IMG/VR virus record: IMGVR_UViG_3300035698_015309
DNA from: a virus
Lineage: Duplodnaviria; Heunggongvirae; Uroviricota; Caudoviricetes
Length of the DNA stretch: 64,000 nucleotides
Direction: 5' to 3' (one strand)
Positions 24,347 through 52,008 of the stretch are shown here, in pieces. Both the position numbers and the translations under genes were made by a program. Below the pieces are notes generated by a model. The model was not told the origin of the DNA. It worked only from the letters and a program-made list of their open reading frames with translations, and searched no databases. Position 1 is the stretch's first letter. Each line of letters starts with the position of its first letter.

Positions 24347-24382
24347 TTAAGGTGAGGGGCAAATGACCCCTGGGAGGATGCG

Positions 24383-26274: not shown

Positions 26275-26379
26275 TGAAGGACGATCATCAACGGATACCT
26301 GAGAAGGAAGAGATCATCCTGGTGTCCGGTTGAGTAGTACAGGTGAGGGGCAAAGGACCCCTGACAAAGGAGCCCAACG

Positions 26380-27631: not shown

Positions 27632-27704
27632 GAAGGAAGGGATCATCTCACCACCCTGTTGAGTAGTCCAAGTGAGGGGCAAACGTCCCCTGGGAGGCTC
27701 ACCG

Positions 27705-28094: not shown

Positions 28095-28180
28095 GAGCAC
28101 GACAAAAAGGGATCATCTCACCGACCTGCTGAGTAGTTAAAGTGAGGGGGCAAATGACCCCTGACAAGGAGACCAACGCA

Positions 28181-28813
28181 ATGAGCAACCCTCAGATAGA
28201 TACCCTGGTCAAACGGATCGCCGCCGCTCGGGACGCTTATTACAACGGCTCCCCCATCATGACGGATGTGGTTTACGACGCCCTGGAAGATCAGCTTCGA
28301 GCGCTCGACCCCAAGCACCCGGAACTCCTCAAGGTCGGTGCAGCCCCCGCCCCGGTCAAGGGTGCATGGCCGAAGGTCCGGCACAGCATCCCAATGTCCA
28401 GCCTGAACAAGGCCCAGGTCGAAACGGATCTGGCTGCGTGGTTCGCCTCGGTGAGCAACGCCGATGTCGCTGTGATGGACAAACTTGATGGTATCTCGTG
28501 TTTTGATGGGGCTACCCCACTGCATCTGGCTAATGGGGAAACTGTCCCCCTTCAAGAGGTCGTAGAAAAGGGACTGATGCCCCAAGTTTTAACCTGGGAT
28601 CCTGAAAGGGGGGTCACCACTGAACAAGTCGTGGCCGTCAAAGACAACGGCATCAAGGATAACTGGGTTCGGGTTACCTTTGAAACGGATCCCCTGCATC
28701 TGGGATCCTCTGTTGTGGTGACTGAAGACCATCTCTTCTATGTCAAGGATAAAGGGTGGGTTGAAGCTAAAGATCTCACGGGTGAAGACGTGCTTGACTG
28801 TACCGAACAACCC
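28181..28813 (+). CDS. ligA: NAD-dependent DNA ligase N-terminal fragment (adenylation-domain start through the KxDG lysine) fused to an N-terminal split-intein half (IntN, 28499-28813)
   Basis: MSNPQIDTLVKRIAAARDAYY...VMDKLDGIS then CFDGATPLHLANGE... (Hint block A). Stops after ~105 aa of intein. An alternative start at 28154 is in frame. Confidence 0.75.
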
Positions 28814-29868: not shown

Positions 29869-31734
29869 ATGCGAGTTGCATCCGTTGAGAAAGTACCGGG
29901 ACCCAGAAGAGCCTTTGATCTGACAATCCGCAATACGTCCTGTTACTTTGTGGGGCCTGGAATTTTAGCACACAACTGTGGGATGAGATACGAAAACAGG
30001 AAGCTAGTGCAGGCGCTGACACGGGGCGACGGGACGATAGGCGAGGATATCACCCGGAACGTCCTGCTGATGAAGGGTGCAGTCAAGGTACTGCCCCCGA
30101 CGTTACCGGATGGCACCCCCACCCCAGACGATGTGTGGGTGCGGGCCGAGGTTGTGGTGACCCACGATGACTTCGTCACCCACTTCAAGGGCGAATCCAA
30201 CCCCCGTAACACGGCGAGCGGCACTGCGAAACGTCAAACTGACAACAGCAAATGTGCCTTCCTGACGGTTATCTGCTATCAACTCCTGCCCGGTGGTCGC
30301 CCGATGGCGTCCAAGAGCGCCGAGTTGAAGGCCCTGGCCACGATGGGCTTCCAGGTACCCCGCTGGGGTGAGTACAAGGGACTGGCAGCAGTGGAGGCCC
30401 TCTACCAGGACTACATCGCCACCGTCAGGAAGAGCCTGGGTTACGATATCGACGGGCTGGTGATCGAGGTGGCTGACGCCAACGCCCGTGCGATGCTTGG
30501 GGAACTGAACAACCGCCCCAAGGGTGCCTGCGCTTATAAGTTTCCTCATGAGTCCAAGCCGACCACGCTGCGGAGCATCCGTTGGCAGGTAGGCAACAGC
30601 GGGCGCATCACCCCGGTGGCCGAATTTGACGTTGTGAACCTCGCAGGGGCGAACGTCAAACAGGCGAGCCTTCACAACATCAGCAACATCGAAGGGCTGT
30701 GGGGCAAAGCCACTGTTCCGGTACCCGGCGACGCAATTCTCGTTTCTCGCAGAAATGATGTTATCCCCTATGTAGAGGAAGTCCTGAACAAGTTCGGTAC
30801 AGGCACGGGACTCCGCACCCCGACCCAGTGCCCCTCCTGCCAGGGAGCCTTGGTGCGGGACGGCGAGTACCTTGTGTGCCGCAGCGAGGAGTGCCCCGCC
30901 CAGGCAACCGGGGCCATCAGACGCTGGGTCAAGAAGCTCGGTGTCCTACACGTTGGCGAGACCCTGATCGACGCAATGGTGGATGCGTTCCCTTTCACCC
31001 TCACCGAGGAAGTGTTTGAAGTCACCTTCGGCGTAAAGAAGGATGACGTGAAGACCCTCCCGGCAGCGGATCAGGAACGGATACGCAACGCCCCAATGGA
31101 CATCGCTGACCTCTACAACCTGGACCTGGACGAGGTCGCCTCCCTGGAGTTGAGCGGACGGCGTGTCGGCGGCTCGGCGGACAAAGCCCTCAGGAACCTT
31201 AACGCCAAGAAGACGCTGCCCCTGCACGTCCTGATAGGGAGCCTGGGTATCCCCCTGATCGGGCGCAGCATGGCCAAGGTGGTTGTGGACGCTGGATACA
31301 CCACCCTGAACCTGCTCTTCAAGGCCAAGGTGCATGTTCCCATCGTCACCAGGGGCAAGACCCTCCCGGCAGTTGCCAGCATCCCTGGAATGGGGGACAC
31401 GAAAGCGCTGGCCTTCGTGACGGGATTTGCTGCCAAGGCCGGGCTGATCGTCAAGTTGCGGGCCACGCAAGACCTTGGCGGAGCCGACATCACCATCCAG
31501 GACATCTCCGGGCCGTTGCTCGGGATGACCTTTTGCCTGACTGGCACCCGTGAACCCGCCCTGCTCGATGCTATCGAAAAGGCGGGTGGCACAATGAAGG
31601 GCAGCGTGTCCAAGAAACTATCCTACCTGATCGCCCTGGACCCGGACAGTACCTCGGGCAAAGCGAAAAAGGCCAAGCAGTACGGCGTGAAGGTGATCGG
31701 CTTGGACGAGGCGTACAAGCTGGCGGGGGTGTGA
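29869..31734 (+). CDS. ligA: C-terminal split-intein half (IntC, 36 aa, ...FVGPGILAHN) fused to the remainder of NAD-dependent DNA ligase
   Basis: Own motif plus RBS plus ATG. HN|CGMRYENRKLVQALTRGDGTIGEDIT continues LigA. C4 zinc finger CPSCQ...CRSEECPAQ and a C-terminal BRCT region present. Confidence 0.8.
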   Translation: MRVASVEKVPGPRRAFDLTIRNTSCYFVGPGILAHNCGMRYENRKLVQALTRGDGTIGEDITRNVLLMKGAVKVLPPTLPDGTPTPDDVWVRAEVVVTHDDFVTHFKGESNPRNTASGTAKRQTDNSKCAFLTVICYQLLPGGRPMASKSAELKALATMGFQVPRWGEYKGLAAVEALYQDYIATVRKSLGYDIDGLVIEVADANARAMLGELNNRPKGACAYKFPHESKPTTLRSIRWQVGNSGRITPVAEFDVVNLAGANVKQASLHNISNIEGLWGKATVPVPGDAILVSRRNDVIPYVEEVLNKFGTGTGLRTPTQCPSCQGALVRDGEYLVCRSEECPAQATGAIRRWVKKLGVLHVGETLIDAMVDAFPFTLTEEVFEVTFGVKKDDVKTLPAADQERIRNAPMDIADLYNLDLDEVASLELSGRRVGGSADKALRNLNAKKTLPLHVLIGSLGIPLIGRSMAKVVVDAGYTTLNLLFKAKVHVPIVTRGKTLPAVASIPGMGDTKALAFVTGFAAKAGLIVKLRATQDLGGADITIQDISGPLLGMTFCLTGTREPALLDAIEKAGGTMKGSVSKKLSYLIALDPDSTSGKAKKAKQYGVKVIGLDEAYKLAGV

Positions 31735-35825: not shown

Positions 35826-36179
35826 ACCGTTCCTTAAAACCTGCTAAAATGTAACAGGCATCAAGTTTGAAGCTGTGCCGAATCTTGGTGACCCAAGTAC
35901 CTCGGTAGTAAACCTCCGGCCCAACGGTAAGGGCTCGATTGACGACCGCTCTAATCGCCCGAATCCTAAGGAACTGGTCCGTCGAAGACGGAATCGCTCT
36001 CTCAGCACTCGTTTTACGCCTCGTGGATGATCGCCAGCTTTGGTGTGTTCATTCCCAGAACATCTGGGCACACCAGAACCTCCTACCCAATCAGCATAAG
36101 CCTTCCTGCCACAACAGCTCCCTGTTTCAAGCAGGAATAGTTAGACTTTAGTAAGTTTGAGGGGTACTGTCAAGTACCC
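35826..36179 (-). mobile_element. Miniature omega-RNA-only element, copy C (minus strand): LE palindrome GGGTACTTGACAGTACCC at 36162-36179, RE at 35826
   Basis: Reverse complement is near-identical to copy B including the deletion junction. ORF 35844..36071(-) is the remnant frame. Confidence 0.7.
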
Positions 36180-36196
36180 TCCACCATGGGGATTGT

Positions 36197-36523
36197 GTGG
36201 GGGCAGATTCTGAGGCTGACTCTGTTGCTGAGGAGCTTGGTTTGTACCGTGTCACACACCCGCCTGAAAACCCGAAAAACCGAGCCTACTGTGTAGCTGA
36301 TGAAACCCATCCCCTCAAACCCTATACCGTCCGTGACCATGACATTGTAGACGCCTCTCAAATTCTAGTGGCGTGCTCGAAAGCAATGCATGAGATACAG
36401 CGCTCAGGTACATGGGCAACCGTCAGGTATGCTCAAAAACGGAAACGCCCCGTCCTGGTCGTTTGGCCGGATGGCACTGTCGGCACCTTGTGGTATGGTG
36501 CTGTTGGGACTAAGCTACATTAG
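36197..36523 (+). CDS. hypothetical protein (start uncertain)
   Basis: ORF abutting the LE of copy C. Confidence 0.3.
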   Translation: MGADSEADSVAEELGLYRVTHPPENPKNRAYCVADETHPLKPYTVRDHDIVDASQILVACSKAMHEIQRSGTWATVRYAQKRKRPVLVVWPDGTVGTLWYGAVGTKLH

Positions 36524-36543
36524 GGAAATCCGAGGAGCGCAAC

Positions 36544-36897
36544 ATGTCCGTTTACATATACCAACCTGATGCCTTTGAAAAACTCATTGAGGTAGAAGGC
36601 GAGGATTACCGACGTCTTGGCACCCAGGAGCGGATGGGGCACTGTTCCTTTGACGCCTTCAAGGACGTTTGGGAGGCCGGATACACCTCTTTGAAGGGTA
36701 CTGACAAGCTCAGACCTTGCCTCCATGTAAAGGGTGGCAGTGCCATCTACGGCTGGTGGGGATGGAACCGTTATGCAGTGGCTGCAAAGGGTGAAATAAT
36801 TTTTCTGACGGGCCTGGCTCGTACAGGCGAGGACATTACGAAGGCTACCGCCGTTGGATTCAGACTGGACAAGGAAGCCTTCAAAAACCAAACGTAG
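36544..36897 (+). CDS. hypothetical protein
   Basis: GAGGAG RBS. Confidence 0.4.
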   Translation: MSVYIYQPDAFEKLIEVEGEDYRRLGTQERMGHCSFDAFKDVWEAGYTSLKGTDKLRPCLHVKGGSAIYGWWGWNRYAVAAKGEIIFLTGLARTGEDITKATAVGFRLDKEAFKNQT

Positions 36898-36998
36898 TCC
36901 TGAAGCGTAAATCCAGGGGCACCTCCCATCTGGAAAAGTTCGAAGCCTAGACAACCCCACCATCGCCGGTATCATACGAATAACAGAGGAGGCATTGA

Positions 36999-37091
36999 CA
37001 TGCCCCTGTTCCTTTATTTCGCTGGTTCCTTCCTTGTGGCCTTCGGGGCCGAAATGATCCACACGGCCCAGACCATTATTGACGAGGAGTA
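36999..37091 (+). CDS. 30-aa hydrophobic peptide (MPLFLYFAGSFLVAFGAEMIHTAQTIIDEE)
   Basis: GAGGAGG RBS. Not in the ORF track (<60 aa). Confidence 0.25.
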
Positions 37092-37099
37092 GGCCCTAA

Positions 37100-37297
37100 A
37101 TGCTAGAGAAGACGGGCTTCTGCACATGCTGCGGGGCCACTCAAAAAATGAGCGCTCTCCGGCAAACCCGTGTCCGGGGCGTCCCGGTGATAGAGTGCCT
37201 AGATCGAGATGCCTGTGAACGACGCTGCAAGGACGGGCGGTTAAAACGTCTCATCGGGTTGTCCGTAAGGTCTCACACGGGGTCGCTTTTCGGCTGA
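37100..37297 (+). CDS. zinc-ribbon small protein
   Basis: CTCCG...C..C. Confidence 0.35.
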   Translation: MLEKTGFCTCCGATQKMSALRQTRVRGVPVIECLDRDACERRCKDGRLKRLIGLSVRSHTGSLFG

Positions 37298-37326
37298 ATG
37301 GAGTAGACCAAGTCAGGAGGTGTTCC

Positions 37327-37932
37327 ATGTCCGTCAAATTCACCAAGAAAGGCATTGCCATCGAAAAGGGTACCACTCCCCCCTCGTGGGAGGACACCGA
37401 CCAGCAGTATCAGGAGTACGTGGGCCACCAGCTTCTCAAAGCTCGACTGGAGCACCTGAAAATCTTGGAGGAAATCGCAGGGGTGCTGCCCGTGTTCGAG
37501 GAACGGCACCTCCTCAATATGGAGGCGCATCAGGCAGCGATGATTTACCTGAACCTCCCGGATCCAGGCCCCCTTTTCCCGAGCTACCAACGAAACTTTA
37601 TCACCATGAACACCACGGTAATGGACCCTGCAATTTCCTGTGCCGGGGTGATGCCCCATGTCAGGGTACTTCTTGGGTGGCTCGCTTTTCCTGAGACAAT
37701 CCGAGAAGGCGTCTGCTACCACCTCTTGACGGCGGGACGTGCTCTTTACCCTTTTGGATACGACTCAGGCCGTTCGGGTTTCACCCTCCTCCAGGAGCGT
37801 GTGGGACACTGCGTCGCTGCCGGTCTCGCTGCCTGTGAAAAACTCGGTTTTGATGGTACAAGGACGCCCCGGAAATCGGTGGTTGAACAACTCGTCCAGA
37901 CTGCGGCCCTTCTCACGGAGGACACCGAATGA
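37327..37932 (+). CDS. hypothetical protein
   Basis: GAGTAGAC plus AGGAGG upstream. Confidence 0.4.
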   Translation: MSVKFTKKGIAIEKGTTPPSWEDTDQQYQEYVGHQLLKARLEHLKILEEIAGVLPVFEERHLLNMEAHQAAMIYLNLPDPGPLFPSYQRNFITMNTTVMDPAISCAGVMPHVRVLLGWLAFPETIREGVCYHLLTAGRALYPFGYDSGRSGFTLLQERVGHCVAAGLAACEKLGFDGTRTPRKSVVEQLVQTAALLTEDTE

Positions 37933-38696
37933 GCACCGCAATCATCGTACTCGGTCATGGTGGTGGGATCCCCGTCCCTGGGATGGGCAACACGAACTTC
38001 GCCATCGTCCCGAATGCCCCCAGAGGGATCCCCGGACCAGAGTTGCTCCAAAGCCATCCCTTCTGGTTGGTCGACTGCGGACCAGAGACCCTCGCCACCC
38101 TGGTCGGGTTGCGTGCCCTGAAGAACCTGAAGGGGATCTTCATCACGCACGTACACTACGATCACACTGGGGGCCTACTCGGGCTGGCCTACACCTTCAA
38201 ATACATGTTGAAGCGCAAGATCCCTCTCGTGATCCCCAGCAAGCTCCAAGTGCTGCTGGAACAAACGATGGTGGAGTTGACACGGACATCAGGTGGCCCA
38301 GCTAACGTGTGGTTGGACTACTGGCAGGGCTGCTTCCTGGGGAATGGTGCTGACCTGGAGGTGGAGGGTTTCACGGCGGAGTTCTTCCCCGAGGATCACA
38401 ACATCGAAGATTTCCCTGTCTATGGGGTCAAGATCCGGGTGCCCTCCTTGCGTAAGGTTTACTTCACAGGCGACACCGTTAACCCCTCGGACAAGGACGC
38501 AGACATCATCTTCCAGGACTGTCAGGTCTACGGGGACGATTCCAAGTACGACGTCCACTGTTCCTACCAAAAAATCCTCCAGGCGTTCCCCGAAGGATGC
38601 CGGGAACACGTCATCCTCTGTCACTGCCCCCCGCAACCGCAGTTCGAGGAGGACGGTTTCAAGCACGCCACGCAGTGGAGAGTGTTTTACGTCTGA
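37929..38696 (+). CDS. metallo-beta-lactamase-fold hydrolase (RNase Z-like)
   Basis: FITHVHYDHTGG (HxHxDH). Stop is 8 nt before the solitary CRISPR repeat. Confidence 0.6.
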   Translation: MSTAIIVLGHGGGIPVPGMGNTNFAIVPNAPRGIPGPELLQSHPFWLVDCGPETLATLVGLRALKNLKGIFITHVHYDHTGGLLGLAYTFKYMLKRKIPLVIPSKLQVLLEQTMVELTRTSGGPANVWLDYWQGCFLGNGADLEVEGFTAEFFPEDHNIEDFPVYGVKIRVPSLRKVYFTGDTVNPSDKDADIIFQDCQVYGDDSKYDVHCSYQKILQAFPEGCREHVILCHCPPQPQFEEDGFKHATQWRVFYV

Positions 38697-38704
38697 GTGC
38701 CTAA

Positions 38705-38740
38705 GTCGCATCTTTTGGCAAAAGGTGCGTGGATTGAAAC
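38705..38740 (+). repeat. Solitary CRISPR repeat GTCGCATCTTTTGGCAAAAGGTGCGTGGATTGAAAC
   Basis: Identical 5' GTCGCATC and 3' GCGTGGATTGAAAC. Stem-loop sequence differs from the array repeat but stays self-complementary. No second repeat within 200 nt. Confidence 0.8.
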
Positions 38741-38743
38741 GGC

Positions 38744-39336
38744 GTGACCCCTGACAGATAGATGATCGCCTGACCGCTCACGGGGTCATAGGAACCCTTA
38801 ACGGTCAGGGACGCCTCCGCCGGGCGGGACACCACGGGGATCTTGGGCCAGTCCCGGATGAGGATCCCAACCAGCCGCTCGGACTCCTGGACGATTCTGT
38901 GGGGCGGGATGAGCAGCGTGAGGGTGTCCCCATCGAAAGCAACGGGATGGAACCCCCGCTTCCACAACCACTCTAACAGGACGATCAACTCGGGGTGCTC
39001 CTCGGCCAGGATCTGGATGCCCTTCACCAAGGGGCGGAAGGCGTTGTCCGGTAAACCGAACGCCGAGTCAGGGATCGAGACCTCGGTGAGGCCCTCTGTC
39101 CAAGCACCCCACTGGGGATTCACGGGAACGGTACGGGGAGCGCCACGCTTGCCCCACAGCGCCCCCAGAGCCTCCTGTTCCTGTGCCTGCTCCTCTTCGG
39201 TCAACTGGACCCACAGGAGGCGCTCACGGGACACGAAGCCCTGGTCCTCATCCGGGGTCCAGGGCAGTCCTTCGGGAAGTGCCCTGCCTACGAGGATCAT
39301 GAGGGCCAGGTCACGGTGCTGTTCTAAAAGTGTCAT
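38744..39336 (-). CDS. hypothetical protein. The listed ORF runs on to 38701 because the CRISPR repeat is open in this frame.
   Basis: 198-aa ORF (211 aa as listed). The last ~12 aa (...PFQSTHLLPKDAT) are encoded by the repeat. Confidence 0.35.
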
Positions 39337-39485
39337 GCAGCTACTTTACCCGGATCATGTTGCTCGGAGGTAGAAGTTTGAACTGTTCCCGAAAAGCTAG
39401 GCAAACGTGCTCCATAAGCCGCCACTGAAAACCGCTTGACACACCATGGGTGTCTATGTACCATTAGGGAGAGCAAGGGAGAACT

Positions 39486-39671
39486 ATGGAGCCCATCCTT
39501 CTGACTATCAACGAGGTTGCCCGTTTGTTCGGGATGCACCCAAATTCGATCCGTAAACTCATGGGCGATGGCAGACTACCCTTTCTTAAGATCGATAAGT
39601 CGCTGCGGTTCGAAACTGATGCCGTGATGCTATTTATTGAGAAACTCAGGAAACAGAGAGCGAAGGATTGA
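39486..39671 (+). CDS. MerR/excisionase-type HTH protein (IS607 TnpA N-terminal-domain-like)
   Basis: INEVARLFGMHPNSIRKLMGDGRLPFLKIDKSLRF. GGGAGAA RBS. Confidence 0.55.
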   Translation: MEPILLTINEVARLFGMHPNSIRKLMGDGRLPFLKIDKSLRFETDAVMLFIEKLRKQRAKD

Positions 39672-41067
39672 CGTCTTGAAAGTCACTCGCATTCTTCAGG
39701 CAGATGTTCCGCCTGCTTTGTTGCAGGTGTGTCGAGCTACCAGATTTCTTCGTGCAGATGTCTGGCGTCGGTACGGTGCCCTGAAGAACGTGGGTAAAAG
39801 TGCCTTGGCTATCCGTAAAGAAATTGTAGCAGGTGGCATCTACGTCACTCTCGCCATAGACGGGACCATACGTAACGAAACAACCAAAGATGTCGTGAAC
39901 GACATCCTGTTCTACAAAGCAGCAGCGAAAGGAAAGGTTCGCAAAGCCATTTGGCAGCGCACCGACAATGAAATGGAACGCAAACGACTCTACACGCTTC
40001 TGCGATCAGACGCATGGATGGAGGATCCCTTCCTTCACCGCCAAATGCGTAAACACTTCAAGCACGGCGTCTCACACACGAAAAATCAGTTTATCGTGAG
40101 GTCCGACAAATTCAAAATAGAGCACGTTAATGGGTATCTGACGATCGTCATCCAAATTGCCCGTAAATACGGTGACGACATAGTTCTAACGACAACGTCA
40201 AACGGCACGAGTGTGGATCTGAGTAGCTGTAACCTACGCATCATTGTGAAGGGTGGTACAACTGAGATCCACTACAGCGTGGATAAAAGCAGTGGGCGTC
40301 CGCATGGTAGCCGGACGCTGGGCGTTGATAAAGGCTACACCGAAGCATTTGTTGATTCGGATGGTGAGCATCAGGGTGAGCAGTTCGGTGCTGTGATGAC
40401 TGAGTACAGCGACAAGGTCAGCAAGACGGGTTCCGCTAGAAACAAGTTGTACGCCCTAGAAAAAAAGCATCGTCAAAGCGGAAACTCCAGAAAAGCTGAC
40501 AACATCAGGGCACACAACCTTGGGTGTAAAAAGATTGATGCTCGTAAACGATTGGCTCAAACACGACTACGGGGTGTAGCCTTTAAGGCTGCTCATGCCA
40601 TCGTGGATAAGGCAGCGGTGGTCGTGTCAGAAGACTTAACCTCTCCGATCGCAAAAAAGCGACCTTGGAAAAGGTTTAATAGAAGAATGAGTGGCTGGGC
40701 AAAGGGAGCACTTGCTGAGGCCCTCGATTCAGTTTGTACGCAGCGTGAAGCCAGCCATGAGTTGGTAAACTGTGCTTACACATCGCAAATGGACTCTGTA
40801 ACGGGTTTGCTGCAAGGCAAGCGTGTTGGAGACAAATTTTACCGTATTAACGGGGATGTTATTCAGGCCGATCACAATGCTGCGCTGAACGTGTTAGCCC
40901 GGTTGTCTGACAAGGACATCGGGTGTTTCACCCCTTATCAAGAGGTAAAACGCATCTTGTTGGCACGTTCTCCGGCGGAACTGACCGTCAAAAGGCACGA
41001 GTTGCAGTCGAGAGGCTCTCAACCGTGTGCGGATAAACCCTCACGATCAGGAGTGATCAATGCTTGA
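39637..41067 (+). CDS. TnpB-like RuvC nuclease lacking the zinc finger (start uncertain)
   Basis: RuvC-I LGVDKGYTE, RuvC-II VVVSEDLTS, YTSQ then no CxxC, RuvC-III IQADHNAALNV. Confidence 0.6.
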   Translation: MRNSGNRERRIDVLKVTRILQADVPPALLQVCRATRFLRADVWRRYGALKNVGKSALAIRKEIVAGGIYVTLAIDGTIRNETTKDVVNDILFYKAAAKGKVRKAIWQRTDNEMERKRLYTLLRSDAWMEDPFLHRQMRKHFKHGVSHTKNQFIVRSDKFKIEHVNGYLTIVIQIARKYGDDIVLTTTSNGTSVDLSSCNLRIIVKGGTTEIHYSVDKSSGRPHGSRTLGVDKGYTEAFVDSDGEHQGEQFGAVMTEYSDKVSKTGSARNKLYALEKKHRQSGNSRKADNIRAHNLGCKKIDARKRLAQTRLRGVAFKAAHAIVDKAAVVVSEDLTSPIAKKRPWKRFNRRMSGWAKGALAEALDSVCTQREASHELVNCAYTSQMDSVTGLLQGKRVGDKFYRINGDVIQADHNAALNVLARLSDKDIGCFTPYQEVKRILLARSPAELTVKRHELQSRGSQPCADKPSRSGVINA

Positions 41068-41371
41068 GGAACAGCAGATGGTTGCCGTTCTCGTCGCTGC
41101 TGGTACGTCCGCCTACGGGGACGACAGCAAACTGACTGATACCGCTCGTGACTGGCTCTCCGCAAGGTTTTCCCCCGAGGACACACAGTTCTGGTTGGAA
41201 GCTGGCTGCTGGGATGTCAAGGTCGCCAGGGCCTTCAAGGACGCTGACCTGGACTCCGAGGACGTAGAGTTCGAAACTGCCAAGCCCACCAAGAGCACGA
41301 TTGCCCATAAGGTCTGCGCCGGGGAGATATCCCTGAACGCCGCCATCCGCATCGCCAAGAGCCGCCAGTAG
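41060..41371 (+). CDS. hypothetical protein
   Basis: ATGA-coupled to the tnpB-like gene. AGGAG RBS. Confidence 0.4.
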   Translation: MLEEQQMVAVLVAAGTSAYGDDSKLTDTARDWLSARFSPEDTQFWLEAGCWDVKVARAFKDADLDSEDVEFETAKPTKSTIAHKVCAGEISLNAAIRIAKSRQ

Positions 41372-41417
41372 ATCATCGACCTAGCTGTGCGAGTAGATCC
41401 CTGTAGGAGGTTCCGCT

Positions 41418-42026
41418 TTGTCTGTTATGCCCGCCACCATCGGGAAAGCCGTCCCTATTGGAGCGCATCCCTATGCAACTGTCGTAGCGGAATACATCCT
41501 CCAGGTGTTTCCTGTGGCCCTCCAAAACCATTGCTGGTGGTGGGGCCAGTCGGAGGGAAAGGAAACGATTCTTATTGTGACCCTGTGTCAAACACCACAT
41601 ATCAGCCTTGGGTTCCAGTTTCGCAAAGACAGTTTGCGTGTTCGATTGGTCCTACAACAAAAGCCCCTTCACACCTTTGAACTGCAGCACTATCTGGATG
41701 AGTCCCTCATTGGTTGGTTGTCCTTAGCGGCGGACACCCTGGACGAGCACCTCATGTTGATGCAGACCAAAAAAACGGCTCATCCTGTTTTTCAAAACAT
41801 GTCAAGAATTTCTTTGTGGTGTGTGGACCTAATGGAGACCGTGCGAGTCAATCCCGGTACCTACTTCACCTGGAACTCAGATTATCGGATCATTAATCCG
41901 ATCCTGGCGGAGGACCCAACGGCTCGCCTTGATGACATCGATGAGCAGTGTCTTAGCCTAACCACGTCTGAGGAGTTTTACGCACTGGTTCGCAAAGGGC
42001 AGTTCCGAGGACCTATGCTTTATTAA
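41418..42026 (+). CDS. hypothetical protein
   Basis: Motif plus AGGAGG upstream. Confidence 0.4.
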   Translation: MSVMPATIGKAVPIGAHPYATVVAEYILQVFPVALQNHCWWWGQSEGKETILIVTLCQTPHISLGFQFRKDSLRVRLVLQQKPLHTFELQHYLDESLIGWLSLAADTLDEHLMLMQTKKTAHPVFQNMSRISLWCVDLMETVRVNPGTYFTWNSDYRIINPILAEDPTARLDDIDEQCLSLTTSEEFYALVRKGQFRGPMLY

Positions 42027-42095
42027 TTCCTGGGCTGTTCCTTTCAGGAGCCCGTTGAGTAGAGCAGTTGTGGCCTTTTAGCAGGAGAAAAAGAG

Positions 42096-44366
42096 ATGAG
42101 CTATCCGACCCGTTCCGATGTGTCCCAGTGCTGTGCCGATTTTAAAGCGTGGCTTCGCAGGCAGGGGCTTGGGGGAAAACCCGCCAGGGACTACGCCCGA
42201 TGTGTCCGGGCAGTAGAGAAACACACCTCTGGTTATTATTTCACCGCCGAAAATGTCGAGAAAGTGCTCAAGGTCAACACCCGTGTCTATCGGACAGCGT
42301 GGGCGGGCAAAAACGGTTTCATGGCCTACTGGGCGCAGCGGGAGAAAGAGGTGACCCAGGCCTGTGGTGTCCTGGACGTTCTGGCAGCAATGTCGGGTGG
42401 TGGGGCACCAAAGCCGACCAAGGGGTCACCTATGAAGGTAGAACCCATCTCCCAGAAGGAGTTCGAGAAGATTTGTGGGGCACCGAAGCCGTCGCGTCAG
42501 CTTCCTGACTTCTCCCAGTTGGCAGAAGGCCACGTGGATGCCGTCAAAACGGATGACCAGGGTCACCTCCACGTCACTATGTGCATCGCTCGTAACAGTA
42601 ACCTCGCCAAAATGGTGCTGGAGGGCCTCCCCCTGAGGTTGGTCCCGGCGGACCCGACCAAGCAGCCCCGATACACGGATGAGGATCTCCAGCAGGCACT
42701 GGAAGAGGACCGGGGGAAGGAGGGTCGTGCGGGTCGTGACTCCGCCCGGAACATCCTGAAAGAGATCATCGGCAGGTTGTTGGGGAAGACCAAGACGGAA
42801 GTCAACGACATCGCTCGGTACTCCCACGCTAAGGACAACGAACTCAAGGACTTCATCCTGGAGTTGGTGCAGGCGCAGGCGTCCTACAGGAACGGACTGA
42901 ACCTCGTCTACGAGACCCTGCTCGGGGCTGTCCCGGAGGATCTGGGGGACGGGGCGGGACGGAAGGCCCAGGCGATCCTGAAAGCGCTCCCTCAGAAGGA
43001 TCTCATCGAGGAGATCCTCGGGGATAAGCCTTCGGACGAATCGGGTCTGCTCACCTTCACCAACAGCCTCCTCATGGGGCTGGCCAGGGTGTTCGACACG
43101 TCGGACGTGGACACGGGGATCGCTTGGAAGCCCGAGATGACGTCGGAACGGATCATCGAAAGCATCCACAGGATACGGACAAAACAGGAGAACGGCCTCG
43201 TTGTAGCGGCCCTGCGGCGGGTGGCCGAGAAGACCCTGGGCCTCAAACTCCCCCCCGGTTTGAGCCCTGAAATGTTGGAGCAGCACATCCAGCACAAGGT
43301 GTCTGACTTGCAGGGGCTGTCCACCGGGGGTCGCCGGTGGGAACAGACCCTCTGGACTGTGTACCGGATGGTGGTAGAGTCTGCCCCTCCCGGTACGGCT
43401 TCCCCCGAGGGGATCATTGGAGCAGTCCAGGACAAGGTCAAAGCCATCCAGTCCGAGGCAGTCCAGTGGCGGGCCGCTCTTCTGAACATCATCCCGATGT
43501 TGGGAGGGGAACCCAACGGGGATGCGACCCCGCAGAGGGCGTTGGAGATCATCGGTGCCCTGCTCAAGGAACGGGATCTCAAAACGTTGCAAGCCGGGAC
43601 GGGGACACCCACAGGAGCACCTGTCATGTGGGAACAGGCGCTTCGTTCCATTGCCGGTTTGATCGGGGGGGACGACTGGACTAACGCTGAAACCCCTGAG
43701 GAGATCCGGGACGAGACCGTAGCTCTGGTGCGATCCCTGGAGCAGCGGGAACGGTTGTGTGTCCTGTCCAAACTGGCAGGGATGATGGGCGACTCCTATA
43801 TGGAGGTCGTGGACGATGCCGTTGGACCTGAGGGTGTGGGAGGTTCCCACCAGGATGTGGAACATGATGTCCTGGTGGCCCTTGTGAAGGCTGTCTCGCA
43901 GGACCGCACGGCACCCGAGGAGAAACCCTCGGGCCTCCCCTACAACCTGTTCAAGCTGGTCACCCTGCTTGGCAGTCCGCTGGTGGGGGACATCGCTTCG
44001 GCACCCAAGGAGGCGGGAACCACCGACGAGGCCAAGACCGAGTACATCGTCAACCTCATCGTTGAGCAGTGGAAGGAGATGGCTGGATGGCGACAGGCCA
44101 TGCTCGACCTGCGCCTCACGGACCTCAAGTACTATTGCCCCACTTTGTCGGAACAGGAGGTGGCAGTTGTCAGCCTCGTTGATGCCAAGAGGACCTTGAG
44201 CGAGGGCATCCGTAAACTCTTCCTGAGGAAGACCGCATCGCCAGTTTCCGCCGATCATGTCATTCTCGCAATGGCTGCTCGGTATGGTGAGAGGACGCAC
44301 CTGGAGGTGCCCAAGTCTGCGGTGGACGATCTGTTGGGCACCCTCCAGGTACTGCTCAAAACTTGA
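42096..44366 (+). CDS. large hypothetical protein (756 aa) with an N-terminal ~90-aa ...GFMAYW domain shared with the gene at 61552
   Basis: GAGTAGA plus AGGAGAAAAAGAG upstream. Confidence 0.5.
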   Translation: MSYPTRSDVSQCCADFKAWLRRQGLGGKPARDYARCVRAVEKHTSGYYFTAENVEKVLKVNTRVYRTAWAGKNGFMAYWAQREKEVTQACGVLDVLAAMSGGGAPKPTKGSPMKVEPISQKEFEKICGAPKPSRQLPDFSQLAEGHVDAVKTDDQGHLHVTMCIARNSNLAKMVLEGLPLRLVPADPTKQPRYTDEDLQQALEEDRGKEGRAGRDSARNILKEIIGRLLGKTKTEVNDIARYSHAKDNELKDFILELVQAQASYRNGLNLVYETLLGAVPEDLGDGAGRKAQAILKALPQKDLIEEILGDKPSDESGLLTFTNSLLMGLARVFDTSDVDTGIAWKPEMTSERIIESIHRIRTKQENGLVVAALRRVAEKTLGLKLPPGLSPEMLEQHIQHKVSDLQGLSTGGRRWEQTLWTVYRMVVESAPPGTASPEGIIGAVQDKVKAIQSEAVQWRAALLNIIPMLGGEPNGDATPQRALEIIGALLKERDLKTLQAGTGTPTGAPVMWEQALRSIAGLIGGDDWTNAETPEEIRDETVALVRSLEQRERLCVLSKLAGMMGDSYMEVVDDAVGPEGVGGSHQDVEHDVLVALVKAVSQDRTAPEEKPSGLPYNLFKLVTLLGSPLVGDIASAPKEAGTTDEAKTEYIVNLIVEQWKEMAGWRQAMLDLRLTDLKYYCPTLSEQEVAVVSLVDAKRTLSEGIRKLFLRKTASPVSADHVILAMAARYGERTHLEVPKSAVDDLLGTLQVLLKT

Positions 44367-44384
44367 ACCAATGGGAGCAACACC

Positions 44385-44597
44385 ATGAGCGACAACAAGC
44401 CTTTCGAGAGTAAGTTCAACAACTGCATGGTCCTCTGCCGGAAGATCATCGACAACACCGGGGACGCCGTCGTGGTGTCCCTGGACGGCTACCTCCTCGC
44501 TCCCTTGGAGGACGTCCCCATGGAGGTTCTGCAGAGCCTCTTCCCCAACTGTAACACCCCCCGGATCCCCGGACAGAACAACAAGACGACGGTTTGA
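44385..44597 (+). CDS. hypothetical small protein
   Basis: RBS-like GGGAGCAA. Confidence 0.35.
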   Translation: MSDNKPFESKFNNCMVLCRKIIDNTGDAVVVSLDGYLLAPLEDVPMEVLQSLFPNCNTPRIPGQNNKTTV

Positions 44598-44968
44598 GCC
44601 TCCTCGAAACACTCCAGAACGTAGACTGCGCCACGCCGTGCCTGAAGTGTGGTCGCCACCTTGAATGGAACAGGCACGCCCACCATGTGGAGGGCAATGA
44701 CTTGGTCCTGGGTTGCCCCGACTGTAGTAAAGGGACGGAAGGCCTCCCCTGCCATCACCGTACTGTTCTGGGGGCAACTCCGCCGAGAGATCCTCGGAAG
44801 ATCATCCTCGGACATTCGGGAGTAGACCCTGTGAGGAGGAAGGATGGGCAGGTTGCTTCAGTTCGAAGATGGTGTACTCCGCAGGAAACTCCAAGAGTTG
44901 CTCATCAGCGTCGACCGGCTCGACTTCAAATTCCTCCGTTTCTTCACCATTTGTGTCGGGTGTGGTAA
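44594..44968 (+). CDS. zinc-ribbon protein (TTG start). 3' extent doubtful (overlaps the next gene and its motif).
   Basis: CLKCGRH...CPDCSKG. Confidence 0.3.
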   Translation: MSLLETLQNVDCATPCLKCGRHLEWNRHAHHVEGNDLVLGCPDCSKGTEGLPCHHRTVLGATPPRDPRKIILGHSGVDPVRRKDGQVASVRRWCTPQETPRVAHQRRPARLQIPPFLHHLCRVW

Positions 44969-45059
44969 ACCCATCAGACCTCGCAGGGGTCCACGGGGCA
45001 GCGAGTCGTTGCTGTGCCCGGACTGTGCCGAGAAGGAGCCACCCGATGCCCTTAAATGA
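44844..45059 (+). CDS. zinc-ribbon small protein
   Basis: Motif at 44801-44830 plus GAGGAGGAAGG. CVGCGK...CPDCAEK. Confidence 0.4.
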   Translation: MGRLLQFEDGVLRRKLQELLISVDRLDFKFLRFFTICVGCGKPIRPRRGPRGSESLLCPDCAEKEPPDALK

Positions 45060-49538: not shown

Positions 49539-49745
49539 ATGAAACGAACCATGATCGTCCGAGTGACCACAACCGAATTTGAAACGTCTGATGGACGGGT
49601 GATCCCACACCCCATTCCGTTTGATCCCGATGAGGTGCCTACCGTCGAAGAGTTCCAACAACAGTACAACAGGTGGCGCAAGGTCTTTGAAGATCAAGGA
49701 CTGGTGTTTCCCATACCTGATGCGGGAGATGAGGATGCTGACTGA
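49539..49745 (+). CDS. hypothetical small protein. 3' end overlaps the tnpA start and may be truncated by, or part of, the IS607 element.
   Basis: Hairpin CCTCCAC-N9-GTGGAGG embeds the RBS. Confidence 0.3.
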   Translation: MKRTMIVRVTTTEFETSDGRVIPHPIPFDPDEVPTVEEFQQQYNRWRKVFEDQGLVFPIPDAGDEDAD

Positions 49746-50376
49746 TCGTCTCCTAGCTCTCACCAAAGCAGCCGAAGCTCTTGGTGTTCACCGGAATACG
49801 CTTCGGGACTGGGCTGATGAAGACAAGATCCCTCACGTTCGCACCGTGGGTGGGCATCGCCGTTTCAAGCAATCAGACATTGACAGGTTGCTGGGCAATC
49901 TCCCAATCGATAAACAGCAAACGGAACGAGTTGTTATCTACTGCCGTGTGTCCAGCCACGATCAGAAAAAGTCAGGCGATCTTGAACGTCAGGCTGGACG
50001 GGTCACGATACACAGCATCACGAAGCAGTACAAGTTGGTCGAAGTGCTTCAAGACGTTGGGTCGGGCATGTCAGACACACGCCCAAAACTCCGAAAGTTG
50101 TTCAAACTGGTCAATGCCCATGAAATAGATAGGGTGGTTGTTGAACACAAAGACCGCCTGACTCGCTTCGGGTTCAATCTGGTCAATGCTTACTTCAACA
50201 GTCATGGTGTCACCATCGAGTGGACACAAGAAGTCCTTGGCAAAGGCTATCAGGAAGAGTTGGTCGAAGACATTTTGACGCTCATGTCGTCGTTCTCCGC
50301 TAAGATTTATGGCAAACGTTCGGCAGAACGACGTAAGGCCAAGAAAGCAGCAGAAGCGGCAGAGACAGTCAAATGA
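49720..50376 (+). CDS. tnpA: IS607 TnpA: MerR-like HTH fused to a serine-recombinase catalytic domain (start ATG 49720-49735)
   Basis: LTKAAEALGVHRNTLRDWADEDKIPHVRTVGGHRRF then VVIYCRVSSHDQ (catalytic Ser) ...RQ. Confidence 0.8.
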   Translation: MREMRMLTDRLLALTKAAEALGVHRNTLRDWADEDKIPHVRTVGGHRRFKQSDIDRLLGNLPIDKQQTERVVIYCRVSSHDQKKSGDLERQAGRVTIHSITKQYKLVEVLQDVGSGMSDTRPKLRKLFKLVNAHEIDRVVVEHKDRLTRFGFNLVNAYFNSHGVTIEWTQEVLGKGYQEELVEDILTLMSSFSAKIYGKRSAERRKAKKAAEAAETVK

Positions 50377-51797
50377 AATGTCGCATCTTCCGACTTCATA
50401 AAGATACCAATCAGTCCAAAATCGACAAGTTGGAAGTCCTACACAATGCCTACGTCAAGTACGTCCGTATCTGCGTACAAACGATGCTTGACCAGCGGGT
50501 CTATAATCTCCCGAAAGCCGCCAAACAAACGTTCTTCCCACGGGCCACCAACCTTACGTCTCAGATCGAAAAGAACGCACGAGACCATGCAATACAAATC
50601 GTGAGCGCTTGGGCGAAAGCTACTTATGCTCGTAAGTTGAAGCCAACCATTACCAACCTTAAGCATGACGGTACCCTTACCGATCAGGATGCCAAAGCAC
50701 TCTATGTCATCGGATTGAAGTCCATCAGTAAACCGTGGAAAGTTATTACTCAAGACCATCTCGACGCCTACCACACCCTGTTGGACACCTACGGAGGTAA
50801 TAAGCCTATCGTAAGAAACAACCTACCCATGAGGTTGTCGGAGATGACGGCTCGATTGGAAGATACATCGAAGGCCCCTCTCGGGGATTTCTGGCTGAGA
50901 GTATCCTCGTTAGAAGCTCGTAAGTCCGTCTGGTTACCCCTCGTTGGGAATCCTTACATCCAACAGGCTGATCAGGTCAGTAAAGGCATTTCGGTCCGCA
51001 AGACCAAGCGAGGCTTCTGGCGCTTTGAAGCTGTCAGCAAGGCCGAGTGGGCCGTTCCTGAAGCACAGGAGGGTTGGCCTAAGTTGGGCGTTGACGTTGG
51101 TCTGAACGTCCTTGCAGCTACCTCAGATGGAGTGACCTATGGTGAGCACGTCAAGCCCAAATTCGATAAGCTCTATGCTCGTGTCAGAAATCTCCGAGCA
51201 AATCGCCAACGACAGGATTTGAAAGACAACAGTCCAAGGTTAGATCACCTTGAGAGCAAGTTGAGTGGGTTGATCAAGACAGAAACGGGTCGTGTGGTGA
51301 ATACCCTCATCGCCCGTCATCCCGAGACGGTGTTCGTAGTCGAAGATCTTGATCTTCGAGGTTGCCGGGGTCAAAAGCGGTTCGCTTACAGGGCGTTACA
51401 GATCAACTTGGAAAGGAAGGCTCCAACAAAGAAAGTGAACCCTGCTTACACGTCGCAGGAGTGTCCTTCTTGTGGTTATGTTCATCGAGGAAACCGAAGT
51501 TCAATAAGGTTCCGTTGCCGCTGTTGTGGCAGGAAGGCTCACGCTGATTGGGTAGGAAGTGCTGGTGTGCTCAGACGTTCTGGGAACGAACACATTGGAA
51601 CTGGTGATCACCCACGAGGCGTAAAACGAGTGCTGAGAGAGCGATTCCGTCTTCGACGGACCAGTTCCTTGGGATTCGGGCGAAAAGAGCAACCGTCATT
51701 CGAGCCCTTACCGTTGGGCCGGAGGCTTACTACCGTTGGATCAGATTCGTCTGGCAGCGGCACAGCTTCAAACTTGATGCCTAGTAGATTCAAGTAG
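50373..51797 (+). CDS. tnpB: TnpB (RuvC + zinc finger), intact stop
   Basis: ~90% identical to 7773..9281. CPSCGYVHRGN...CRCCGRKAHADW. Confidence 0.85.
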   Translation: MKCRIFRLHKDTNQSKIDKLEVLHNAYVKYVRICVQTMLDQRVYNLPKAAKQTFFPRATNLTSQIEKNARDHAIQIVSAWAKATYARKLKPTITNLKHDGTLTDQDAKALYVIGLKSISKPWKVITQDHLDAYHTLLDTYGGNKPIVRNNLPMRLSEMTARLEDTSKAPLGDFWLRVSSLEARKSVWLPLVGNPYIQQADQVSKGISVRKTKRGFWRFEAVSKAEWAVPEAQEGWPKLGVDVGLNVLAATSDGVTYGEHVKPKFDKLYARVRNLRANRQRQDLKDNSPRLDHLESKLSGLIKTETGRVVNTLIARHPETVFVVEDLDLRGCRGQKRFAYRALQINLERKAPTKKVNPAYTSQECPSCGYVHRGNRSSIRFRCRCCGRKAHADWVGSAGVLRRSGNEHIGTGDHPRGVKRVLRERFRLRRTSSLGFGRKEQPSFEPLPLGRRLTTVGSDSSGSGTASNLMPSRFK

Positions 51798-52008
51798 GTT
51801 TTGAGGAACGGTTTACGCCACCCTCTCCATCTGTGTAAGAGACTTGGTGCAAACCCTGGACCCGAATGCTTTCATCCTGCATCACGACATCAAACACCCG
51901 CTGATCAGGGCTCTCCTGGCCAGCGGACTTTTCGAGGACACGGGTAAGGTCGCAAGCTACGGGTTCGTCTTTGATCGGCCCGTGTGGAAACTACTTAAGG
52001 AGGACTGA

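Follow-up and report, generated by a model that had tools for sequence, protein, structure and literature searches.

The tnpB gene examined here, which lies together with a small HTH gene in a 64,000-nucleotide stretch of viral DNA (the window), belongs, in our judgment quite probably, to a tnpA-less derivative of an IS607-family insertion sequence that is fixed in a ~528-kb huge phage from Ace Lake. The copy in the window has kept an intact open reading frame (ORF), the RuvC triad, all 39 base pairs of an omega-RNA (reRNA) scaffold and the right end (RE) of the element; tnpA and the left end (LE) are absent, and a 61-aa HTH_17 gene is found in their place. Transposition by this copy is no longer possible because TnpA and the LE are missing, and the locus is most likely a TnpB/omega-RNA retention module, immobilised but intact. 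An earlier reading of the sequence (the original prediction) had correctly described a TnpB-family nuclease that shares what looks like an operon with a small HTH protein of the MerR/excisionase type, and had named a degraded IS as one alternative, which turned out to be essentially right. The locus is an ordinary, degraded selfish element rather than a new RNA-less nuclease, and the apparent anomaly of an 'RNA-less, zinc-finger-less TnpB' resolves into a normal member of a large and widespread IS607-associated TnpB clade. Of the marks by which simply another IS copy was to be recognized, the RE and an omega-RNA-like conserved 3' region are present and the LE is absent.

Table 1. Features of the locus, in window coordinates.
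Feature	Position	Strand	Description
Phage intergenic region upstream of the insertion	39337..39485	+	In its first part, alignable to the intergenic DNA of related phages (GGAGTAGAG-like motif)
ATG GAG	39486..39491	+	Putative codons 1 and 2 of the phage gene before its interruption; the HTH ORF now starts here
HTH_17/excisionase-type DNA-binding protein	39486..39671	+	61 aa; orphan at the sequence level
Inserted block	39492..41074	+	1583 bp: HTH coding sequence, tnpB, omega-RNA scaffold and RE; without tnpA or a recognisable LE
tnpB	39676..41067	+	463 aa, TTG start; RuvC D218/E319/D399 intact; zinc ribbon degenerate, cysteine-less
omega-RNA (reRNA) scaffold	40783..41074	+	Predicted; embedded in the 3' end of tnpB; seven helices
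Right end proper	41040..41074	+	Terminal hairpin GATCA-GGAG-TGATC, then AATGCTTGAGGAACAG; holds AGGAG and ATG (41060)
Displaced 103-aa phage gene	41060..41371	+	Homologues beside the empty site in related phages; start codon inside the RE
Predicted omega-RNA guide segment	41075..41094	+	CAGATGGTTGCCGTTCTCGT; from the 5' part of the interrupted gene's coding sequence

A cysteine-less TnpB of an IS607-type family

The ORF at 39637-41067 encodes 476 aa from a TTG codon, as originally described, but homologues and the JGI gene call move the start to the TTG at 39676, which leaves 463 aa. The catalytic residues occur in the canonical order of a split RuvC domain, namely, the aspartate of RuvC-I in GVDKGY (codon 40327-40329), the glutamate of RuvC-II in VVSEDL (40630-40632) and the aspartate of RuvC-III in QADHNAALN (40870-40872). 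Their presence, like that of the YTSQ motif, agrees with the original prediction, and all are invariant across an 18-sequence alignment; the protein is full length, with no TldR-like catalytic loss or C-terminal truncation. The reported lack of CxxC pairs holds as well, with 7 cysteines in the protein, none of them in such a pair, and no C4 zinc finger between RuvC-II and RuvC-III. CxxC is absent throughout the family alignment, and more distant relatives retain CxxC...CxxC at the same spacing. Judging from this alignment, the loss of the zinc-finger cysteines is a trait of the clade that is not peculiar to the window copy; some large TnpB branches have been published as having lost the zinc finger (PMC10691335).

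The HMM comparison that the original prediction had called for produced a significant match of the window TnpB to NF040570 (guided_TnpB), at 62 bits (E 5.8e-17), which is nevertheless under the cut-off of 100, and one to Pfam Cas12f1-like_TNB at 24.6 bits, under the cut-off of 26.3; such sub-threshold matches point to a divergent clade. A PDB profile search with the family alignment matched no TnpB or Cas12 by sequence. The AF2 model of the protein has low confidence (pLDDT 62.7; <50 in the RuvC half); in Foldseek, this weak model (TM 0.2-0.3) yielded 12 matches with E <=1e-3, every one of them Cas12 or TnpB, including ISDra2 TnpB and the IS607-type ISFba1 TnpB (8h1j, 3.9e-5; 8iaz, 1.3e-4). 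This poorly modelled, cysteine-less clade, missed by curated HMMs and by Rfam, is of interest for genome-editing searches as a source of a cysteine-free TnpB of compact size (463 aa), for which the RNA is defined and a GGAG target motif predicted.

More than 1000 relatives share 65-70% identity with the window TnpB, and the source annotation of relatives in this range is transposase or 'ORFB of ISCARN12' (IS200/IS605 family, IS1341 group). In ~30 of 35 bacterial genome loci, a tnpA gene of the MerR-HTH/serine-recombinase kind is located directly upstream of tnpB, which is the IS607 arrangement; the Acidithiobacillus loci and L026, an intact relative whose TnpB is 88% identical, have tnpA with MerR and Resolvase domains in this position. 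The family is of the IS607 type, and the window copy is not a complete member of it. On Acidithiobacillus-type contigs, copies of identical sequence are flanked in three different ways on the left and in three on the right, and the Acidithiobacillus element L001 (2320-4400), the ends of which were set from different flanks, terminates 5 nt past the tnpB stop. The ISCARN12-like elements of Acidithiobacillus, Thiocystis and Burkholderiales, which belong to the same protein family at 65-70% identity, resemble the window copy in the RNA inside the gene, in the layout of the RE and in the GGA(A/G)CAG end. However, they have a tnpA gene and an LE of 55 nt that contains a sigma-70-like promoter, and they are found in several flanking contexts, whereas the window copy has an orphan HTH gene and a single site.

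The embedded RNA scaffold and the right end

The original prediction found no room for an RE or omega-RNA. By contrast, the search for a structured RNA that it proposed revealed a covarying RNA of 39 pairs over the interval given in Table 1, and conservation with relatives reaches 41074, 7 nt beyond the tnpB stop. In a 32-sequence alignment, RNAalifold and pair counts gave 96.7% paired cells for the 39 pairs, with compensatory changes in 18 of them (153 cells); the covariation score is 0.351, compared with 0.134 after shuffling (0 of 500 shuffles reach 0.351) and <=0.078 after sliding. Every one of the 39 pairs is intact in the window copy, and invariant G-U pairs assign the RNA to the + strand. 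The helices include a long stem (40995-41009 with 41014-41028), a long-range closing helix (40783-40786 with 41029-41032) and a terminal hairpin (41045-41048 with 41055-41058). Conservation at synonymous sites rises to 0.6-0.9, against a baseline of 0.42-0.48, with peaks at 40753-40860 and 40948-41067, and the RNA pairing dictates correlated amino acid changes in the protein, for example, His...Cys (CACG/CGTG), Leu...Ser (CTTG/CAAG) and Val...Thr (GTCG/CGAC). The alignments indicate that, throughout the family and also in the copies with different flanks, the RE and the scaffold are contained within the last ~290 nt of tnpB, so that a guide-RNA scaffold of ~290 nt is documented wholly inside coding sequence.

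With Rfam, neither a scan of the locus (E up to 10) nor one of the whole window at gathering thresholds detected an omega-RNA, RAGATH or IS605-orfB family. The scaffold is present in a single copy within the window. The mini-elements, the omega-RNAs of which the original prediction had considered as possible partners of the nuclease, derive from another, unrelated IS607-type element in the window and are rejected as the source of the RNA.

The boundary of the RE is sharp, with family conservation ending after GGA(A/G)CAG in the 32 sequences, the window included. The ORF downstream, which starts at the ATG at 41060, overlaps tnpB by 8 nt (ATGCTTGA) and not by ATGA, as had been stated. The guide is predicted to occupy the segment directly 3' of the RE boundary, a placement based on this position and on published IS607 reRNAs, which overlap tnpB and run ~17 nt beyond the element boundary (bioRxiv 10.1101/2023.08.09.552727). 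In the window, the guide sequence is unique, with no second match to it.

The known IS607 TnpBs with an ORF-overlapping reRNA (ISXfa1, CboIStron TnpB and the ISFba1 TnpB-reRNA, PDB 8iaz) have a MerR-HTH/serine-recombinase TnpA upstream, as do the relatives of the window TnpB. In both cases, the scaffold and the 3' end of tnpB overlap, the scaffold stops at the RE, the guide comes from the flank, and the target motif on the LE side differs from the end of the RE, which allows self/non-self discrimination. The window TnpB is nonetheless very distant in sequence from these three, with no PDB profile match; its RNA is neither RAGATH-18 nor another Rfam family, and the scaffold is ~290 nt long, compared with ~150 nt in ISXfa1. 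Unlike the known systems, its clade has lost the zinc-finger cysteines and the window copy itself has neither tnpA nor LE, and the putative target motif of the family is GGAG/AG rather than the G-rich TGGG with a GG core.

Insertion into a phage gene and proposed RNA-guided retention

Sequence comparison suggests that the 1583-bp block was inserted directly after a GGAG, at codon 2 of a phage gene. At the empty sites of related phages, which were located via homologues of the 211-aa neighbour gene, a 204/211-aa gene directly adjoins a 103/104-aa gene, and the join 39491|41075 is colinear with the empty sites in L080, L078 and L075. The GC content of the block is 0.48-0.50, compared with 0.58-0.63 in the neighbours. 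Pattern scans for related phages with the 756-aa neighbour (IMG/VR) and with the 103-aa gene (metagenome_contigs) gave no confirmed loci, megablast of window positions 36000-45000 against annotated phages gave no matches, and no close variant of the window phage with an empty site and a match to the guide came to light; L080, where the neighbour gene is 73% identical at the protein level, has the nearest empty site, with many mismatches to the guide. In the synteny comparison, also advocated in the original prediction, the TnpB protein is identical and the context is the same in all 23 contigs read.

The GGAG at 39488-39491, the end of ATG GAG, is the putative target motif, or TAM; before the LE of the bacterial copies, GGAG is found in 22 of 27 cases and AG in all 27, which makes GGAG/AG the probable motif of the family. 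As the core dinucleotide, AG appears to fit better than GG, short of proof; an IS607-like GG core is not supported, with TGAACAG at the RE of several multicopy relatives. A profile of 27 LEs matches L026, L023 and L024 and, partially, L015, a solo tnpB paralogue (86% identity) elsewhere in the same phage genome, and has no match in window positions 39000-41300. An LE upstream of or inside the HTH gene was rejected, the GCTTGACA and ACTGA likenesses being promoter-like and without LE-profile score. That a block without LE is found exactly at the target motif counts against the explanation that we prefer.

Upstream of the insertion, a Shine-Dalgarno-like AAGGGAG (about 39474-39480) precedes the ATG of the HTH gene. 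The TTGACA promoter of the original prediction exists as the promoter-like TTGACA-17-TACCAT (39436-39464), but its 10/12 consensus match is not above chance (2 such sites in the region versus 1.8 expected from shuffles). The operator-like repeat reported as GACACC-ATG-GGTGTC was misread: 39436-39454 is TTGACACACCATGGGTGTC, and the short inverted repeat at 39438-39454 has arms of only 5 bp (GACAC...GTGTC, or ACACC-ATG-GGTGT), again not above chance.

In the retention scheme that we propose, the HTH protein would be translated from the ribosome-binding site and ATG of the interrupted gene, and the RE would supply AGGAG and ATG to restart the displaced gene, so that the whole block would be read as one phage operon; in this reading, the locus is a clean example of how an element of this kind can lie silent where a phage gene begins. 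TnpB would process the 3' part of its own transcript to the omega-RNA, with the ~16-20 nt after 41074 as the guide, and together with this RNA it would cleave the uninterrupted allele (GGAG followed by CAGATGGTT...) in a co-infecting genome. The predicted empty-allele junction is CTATGGAG|CAGATGGTT, and the predicted target of RNA-guided, TAM-dependent cleavage is GGAG followed by CAGATGGTTGCCGTTC. After the cut, recombination would copy the element in, resulting in retention or homing, and the resident locus would escape cutting because AACAG, not GGAG, stands before its guide match. This role is the one that has been shown experimentally for IS605 and IS607 TnpB, and TnpB-driven retention/homing of IS607 elements has been described (bioRxiv 10.1101/2023.11.20.567912). 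For phage biology, the scheme implies that RNA-guided homing may, with a modest chance, occur between the genomes of huge phages.

Conceivably, but in our view with little probability, huge phages have in the HTH-tnpB-omega-RNA block a self-sufficient homing cassette that does not depend on TnpA, with the HTH protein as a dedicated regulator. Such a cassette would spread and persist only via RNA-guided cleavage of uninterrupted alleles during co-infection, and its RE would have evolved the Shine-Dalgarno sequence and ATG that make an insertion at a gene's 5' end phenotypically silent; if real, it would be an RNA-guided analogue of the protein homing endonuclease genes of T4-like phages.

This cassette, controlled by the HTH protein, is also one of two forms, the other being an RNA-guided nuclease directed against rival phages or host DNA, that a domesticated module might take, in which the HTH protein and TnpB/omega-RNA were recruited for the benefit of the phage and selection acts at the phage level rather than on persistence of the element. 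Domestication, which we regard as improbable, would be compatible with the intact ORF and RNA despite the loss of tnpA and the LE, with the locus being fixed and identical in 23/23 contigs read, in a phage with complete circular assemblies reported for both 2008 and 2014 and hence persistent over that time (PMC7416419), with the embedding of the block in a phage operon with the start of the displaced gene restored, with the maintenance of the second solo copy, L015, and with the other nucleic-acid conflict systems of the phage, including type I-C CRISPR-Cas. However, all these features would also be predicted for a selfish element only recently immobilised and maintained by homing. Moreover, the guide is merely the flank, as for any IS copy, without a second target in the window, and the HTH-TnpB pairing is not conserved in any other genome. 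The known domesticated TnpBs, the TldRs, resemble the window TnpB in being TnpB derivatives with a guide RNA, no transposase and a fixed genomic position, but they are nuclease-dead RNA-guided repressors, whereas the window TnpB retains D/E/D, is guided by an ordinary flank and has no conserved association with a regulated gene. The retention module also resembles the IS1341-type solo tnpB elements and tnpA-deleted derivatives, which likewise keep tnpB, the omega-RNA and the RE without a transposase; L015, one of these, has the start codon of tnpA and the greater part of the LE left and so could be mobilised in trans, in contrast to the window copy, which has no LE and in which a foreign HTH ORF is fused to the start of the host gene.

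Even less plausible is a dead relic, with a non-functional gene and RNA that simply have not decayed yet. The impossibility of transposition and the many decayed or internally deleted copies in bacteria (L055, L059, L061, L062, L065, L067) are in line with such a relic, but the 463-codon ORF is uninterrupted, with the catalytic residues and the complete set of RNA pairs preserved, and the paralogue L015 is likewise intact. In addition, the dN/dS of tnpB is 0.08-0.11 against L015, L026 and L024, and dS to the nearest relatives, 0.5-0.9, implies ample time for decay, these values being measured between lineages and saying nothing on selection after the loss of tnpA.

The HTH gene

The 61-aa protein is real, as originally predicted, and has no serine-recombinase domain: it matches PF12728 (HTH_17) with 41.5 bits (cut-off 27; E 1.6e-10), the complete domain covering residues 5-54, and TIGR01764 ('excise') with 29.0 bits (cut-off 28.8). 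A complete HTH_17 domain is a likeness to phage excisionases and AlpA- or MerR-type proteins; unlike these, the protein has no partner integrase or recombinase and no detectable close homologue, and its start codon comes from the interrupted phage gene. A homologue search with a word-based index, which does not cover remote relatives, returned only the protein itself, and the gene is absent from the locus of every relative.

The original prediction likened this protein to the DNA-binding half of an IS607 TnpA; that it is what survives of the element's own TnpA after deletion of the recombinase domain is very unlikely and is rejected here, despite the shared broad HTH_17/MerR fold family, a faint resemblance (E 3e-4 over 31 aa) to the window's other TnpA, the tnpA position 4 nt from tnpB and the low GC shared with tnpB, given that homology with L026, 87% at the nucleotide level in tnpB, covers window positions 39669-41085 only, with no match in 39492-39668 to the tnpA or LE of L026, that the LE is absent altogether, that the cognate TnpA N-domain profile gives 7.1 bits (27.9 for the unrelated IS607 TnpA in the window), that the SGHRYFDESDV motif of the cognate N-domains is missing and that BLASTP against the cognate TnpAs gives E 0.5-12. 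By these comparisons, the HTH protein and the cognate TnpA are unrelated beyond the fold family. Most likely, the protein is a small transcriptional regulator of the operon.

The nuclease and its relatives

All of the RuvC residues of the nuclease, D218 (GVDKGY), E319 (VVSEDL) and D399 (QADHNAALN), together with the YTSQ motif, are present, and the protein contains no CxxC, as had been read from the sequence. The long ORF called mechanically comprises 476 aa, from TTG 39637 to 41067; the start adopted here, which leaves a gap of 4 nt from the HTH ORF, is given in the table. The match to NF040570 is significant yet below the curated cut-off (E 5.8e-17; 62 bits against 100), and that to Pfam TNB falls under its threshold as well (24.6 against 26.3); phrog_506 'transposase' matches at 3.7e-15. 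A sequence search found no solved structure, and the AF2 model is weak (pLDDT 62.7), its structure matches being Cas12/TnpB only, including ISDra2 TnpB and the IS607-type ISFba1 TnpB.

More than 1000 relatives are detectable, and the best 120 of these, from Acidithiobacillus, Thiocystis, Allochromatium, Rhodoferax and others, are 64-88% identical and annotated as 'transposase' or 'ORFB of ISCARN12', many on 1.7-2.5-kb contigs, typical of repeats. A TnpA of about 207 aa (MerR-HTH and Resolvase) lies directly 5' of tnpB, with overlapping stop and start, both in the Acidithiobacillus loci and in L026, the closest intact relative (88% aa); this arrangement is found in about 30 of 35 reference-genome loci, the remainder being solo or internally deleted copies. 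This identifies the nuclease as the TnpB of an IS607-family element. An exhaustive phmmer search of 1.84 billion representatives yielded only 965 matches at E up to 1e-3, so this TnpB clade is distinct and divergent. The more distant members of the clade keep CxxC...CxxC, and the nearer ones carry DSxT...NGxV with the spacing unchanged; thus, loss of the zinc finger is a clade trait, in agreement with the loss published for some large TnpB branches (PMC10691335).

The window comes from contig Ga0208769_1000001. Across the 23 contigs read, the nuclease is 100% identical and its surroundings are the same. The dN/dS of the window tnpB against L026, another relative (L024) and a same-genome paralogue (L015) is 0.08-0.11, with dS of 0.5-1.2. 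The paralogue (L015 3886-5399; at about 97-106 kb of the contig) is a solo tnpB, 86% identical in amino acids to the window copy, and is a tnpA-deletion derivative that keeps a near-complete left end (LE) and the tnpA start codon. Its dS is lower to L026 than to the window copy, pointing to separate acquisitions or to an old duplication.

Features of the window (positions in window coordinates)
Feature	Position	Strand	Remarks
HTH ORF	39486-39671	+	61 aa; complete HTH_17 domain (Pfam 41.5 bits; TIGR01764 'excise' 29.0 bits)
tnpB	39676 (TTG)-41067	+	463 aa, begins LKVTRILQADVP; start as in every homologue and in JGI's gene call
omega-RNA scaffold	40783-41074	+	Covarying fold; 39/39 pairs intact
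103-aa phage gene ORF	from 41060 (ATG)		8-nt overlap with tnpB (ATGCTTGA)
Second, unrelated IS607-type element	49621-51812		Complete; tnpA 49621-50376 (MerR + Resolvase), tnpB 50373-51797 with zinc finger
Solo copy of second element	7698-9213		Also given as 7759-9212; 86% nt identity
MITE-like mini-elements of second element (3)	1-257; 18448-18803; 35826-36180	third, -	
Type I-C cas genes	cas3 9987-12365; cas5 12460-13131; cas8c/Csd1 13128-14960; cas7 15006-16031		
CRISPR array	~16228-17310		Repeat GTCGCATCCTCTAACAAAGGATGCGTGGATTGAAAC
PARP-like protein	5070-6617	-	WGR and regulatory domains
NAD-dependent DNA ligase	29869-31734		BRCT
DUF559/MTES_1575-type endonuclease-like protein	28740-29837		
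452-aa protein	3739-5097		Weak HNH match
Dispersed ~55-65-nt repeats	6955-7007; 20332-20389; 23705-23765; 24319-24379; 26302-26379; 27631-27697; 28106-28178	both	Intergenic; 80-94% identical

The right end and the embedded RNA

Identical Acidithiobacillus copies differ in their flanks, of which there are three on the left and three on the right, and from these the element ends were set at L001 2320-4400. The right end (RE) stops there 5 nt past the tnpB stop, and therefore the missing 3' non-coding space is the norm of the family. When the window was aligned with five relatives, nucleotide conservation reached GAGGAACAG (41066-41074), with none beyond. Synonymous-site identity is 0.42-0.48 over most of tnpB, with two rises, one at 40753-40860 (0.60-0.68) and a higher one at 40948-41067 (0.7-0.9).

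The last 300 nt of tnpB plus flank, aligned for 32 sequences, fold into seven helices with 39 pairs, in which 96.7% of cells are paired, with compensatory changes in 18 pairs (153 cells). Covariation scores 0.351, whereas shuffles give 0.134 (0/500 reach 0.351) and sliding the partners by 1-3 columns yields no more than 0.078. The covariation includes CACG/CGTG, CTTG/CAAG and GTCG/CGAC in one helix, AGGC/GCCT, GCGA/TCGC and GTAC/GTAC in another, and TGTACA/TGTACA, GATCA/TGATC, TGAGCA/TGCTCA and TGACTA/TAGTCA in the terminal hairpin. Invariant plus-strand G-U pairs point to an RNA in the tnpB sense, not a DNA palindrome. There is no Rfam model for this RNA; the published reRNA of ISXfa1 (IS607) likewise overlaps tnpB, running about 17 nt past the boundary (bioRxiv 10.1101/2023.08.09.552727). 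The original prediction that no RE or omega-RNA exists is thereby refuted, and with this premise falls the possibility, raised with it, of a domesticated or RNA-borrowing nuclease. The mini-elements are rejected as an RNA source because they derive from the second, unrelated element, each comprising about 63 nt of its LE and about 290 nt of its RE (omega-RNA region); the embedded RNA has only one copy in the window. Immediately 3' of the solo copy of that element is a tRNA gene (9406-9466, minus strand; Rfam RF00005, 36.8 bits).

In the C-terminal tail of TnpB, amino-acid changes are correlated as dictated by the RNA pairing (40995-41032; columns 302-341 of alignment A4), namely His...Cys with CACG/CGTG, Leu...Ser with CTTG/CAAG and Val...Thr with GTCG/CGAC. 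Residues 432-463 are predicted to be disordered, so the tail may largely be translated RNA scaffold. The 5' helices (40783-40853) overlap the stretch that encodes the degenerate zinc ribbon YTSQMDSVTGLLQGKRVGDKFYRINGD. A wholly ORF-embedded RNA of about 290 nt that imposes correlated amino-acid changes is worth recording, as is the degenerate zinc ribbon itself.

Insertion site, left end and HTH gene

In related phages, homologues of the neighbouring 211-aa gene directly adjoin the homologue of the 103-aa gene (spacing 67-84 nt), and therefore the HTH gene and tnpB are an insertion in this lineage. One such phage locus, L080, has the same synteny as the window (MBL - 204 aa - 104 aa - 206 aa). 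The GC content of the two genes is 0.48-0.50 against 0.58-0.63 for the neighbours. The join 39491|41075, CTATGGAG|CAGATGGTT, is gapless and colinear with the empty sites of L080 (CACTGGAGCTAATGGTG), L078 (ATTTGGAAGTAATGGTT) and L075 (ATCTGGAATTGATGCAA), so that the inserted block would be 39492-41074 (1583 bp). The left flank ends in GGAG; in bacterial copies GGAG directly precedes the LE in 22/27 and AG in 27/27, and the RE terminates in CAG in most copies. Hence we infer GGAG as the target motif (TAM) and AG as the crossover dinucleotide. The HTH ORF would borrow the ribosome-binding site and first two codons of the interrupted gene, and the RE would supply AGGAG and ATG (41049-41062), restarting the displaced gene, which overlaps tnpB by 8 nt and not, as first thought, through ATGA, as MLEEQ|QMVAV. 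These junction-level readings come from alignments with rather remote relatives (60-73% aa). Also worth recording is the insertion at codon 2 of a phage gene, which is phenotypically silent and lies beside an orphan HTH.

A profile built from 27 bacterial left ends matches L026 and two other relatives (L023, L024) and finds a partial LE in L015; it finds none in 39000-41300. One possibility is that the LE-less block at the target motif arose by aberrant TnpA-mediated excision from a donor via a pseudo-LE site.

PHROGs labels the HTH excisionase-like. Derivation of this ORF from the element's own TnpA is rejected: BLASTP against cognate TnpAs gives E of 0.5-12 (no match), the cognate TnpA N-domain profile scores 7.1 bits against 27.9 for an unrelated IS607 TnpA, and nucleotide homology to L026 (87% identity across tnpB) begins only at 39669, 7 nt 5' of the tnpB start. 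Its proposed identity as the DNA-binding half of an IS607 TnpA holds for the broad fold family but not for the cognate-TnpA profile; the HTH shares that family with the HTHs of TnpA proteins, without recognisable origin in the element's TnpA. Only the protein itself was retrieved from an index of 5.8 billion proteins, and no homologue from the fetched loci.

Other virus-like relatives contain a conserved ORF of 49-63 aa between tnpA (or LE) and tnpB (L023 3750-3941, L024 3726-3875, L025 99-287), with the motif ...ITEAQMMLYAVK(D/E)NRDPD...C(K/R)R(E/Q)YR...; it has no Pfam match and is unrelated to the window HTH. Small cargo ORFs directly 5' of tnpB seem to be recurrent in the sub-clade.

Proposed activity and genomic setting

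The catalytic triad is intact, the covarying RNA is intact to the boundary, transposase and LE are absent, and the block is inserted relative to related phages. What this huge phage carries here is a TnpB/omega-RNA element of the IS607 family that lacks TnpA. Most of what was originally observed is borne out, the central interpretation excepted, and the alternative then offered, a degraded IS, is supported. By extension of published IS605/IS607 work (bioRxiv 10.1101/2023.11.20.567912), TnpB would process a transcript from the phage promoter, yielding an omega-RNA whose guide is CAGATGGTTGCCGTTC...; uninterrupted alleles flanked by GGAG would be cut by the complex, and repair would copy the element in. 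AACAG in place of GGAG would shield the resident copy, and its transposition would no longer be possible. The probable role of the HTH is to regulate transcription; neither the promoter-like site nor the short palindrome upstream of it is above chance.

The CRISPR-Cas system of type I-C has already been described for this phage (PMC7416419); no cas1, cas2 or cas4 was seen among the ORFs scanned. The PARP-like, ligase, DUF559 and HNH-match genes form a repair or conflict set unusual for a phage. A metallo-beta-lactamase-fold protein (37929-38696) matches the anti-Pycsar nuclease Apyc1 below threshold (30 bits; cut-off 50), and its gene is syntenic in the related phages L080 and L082.
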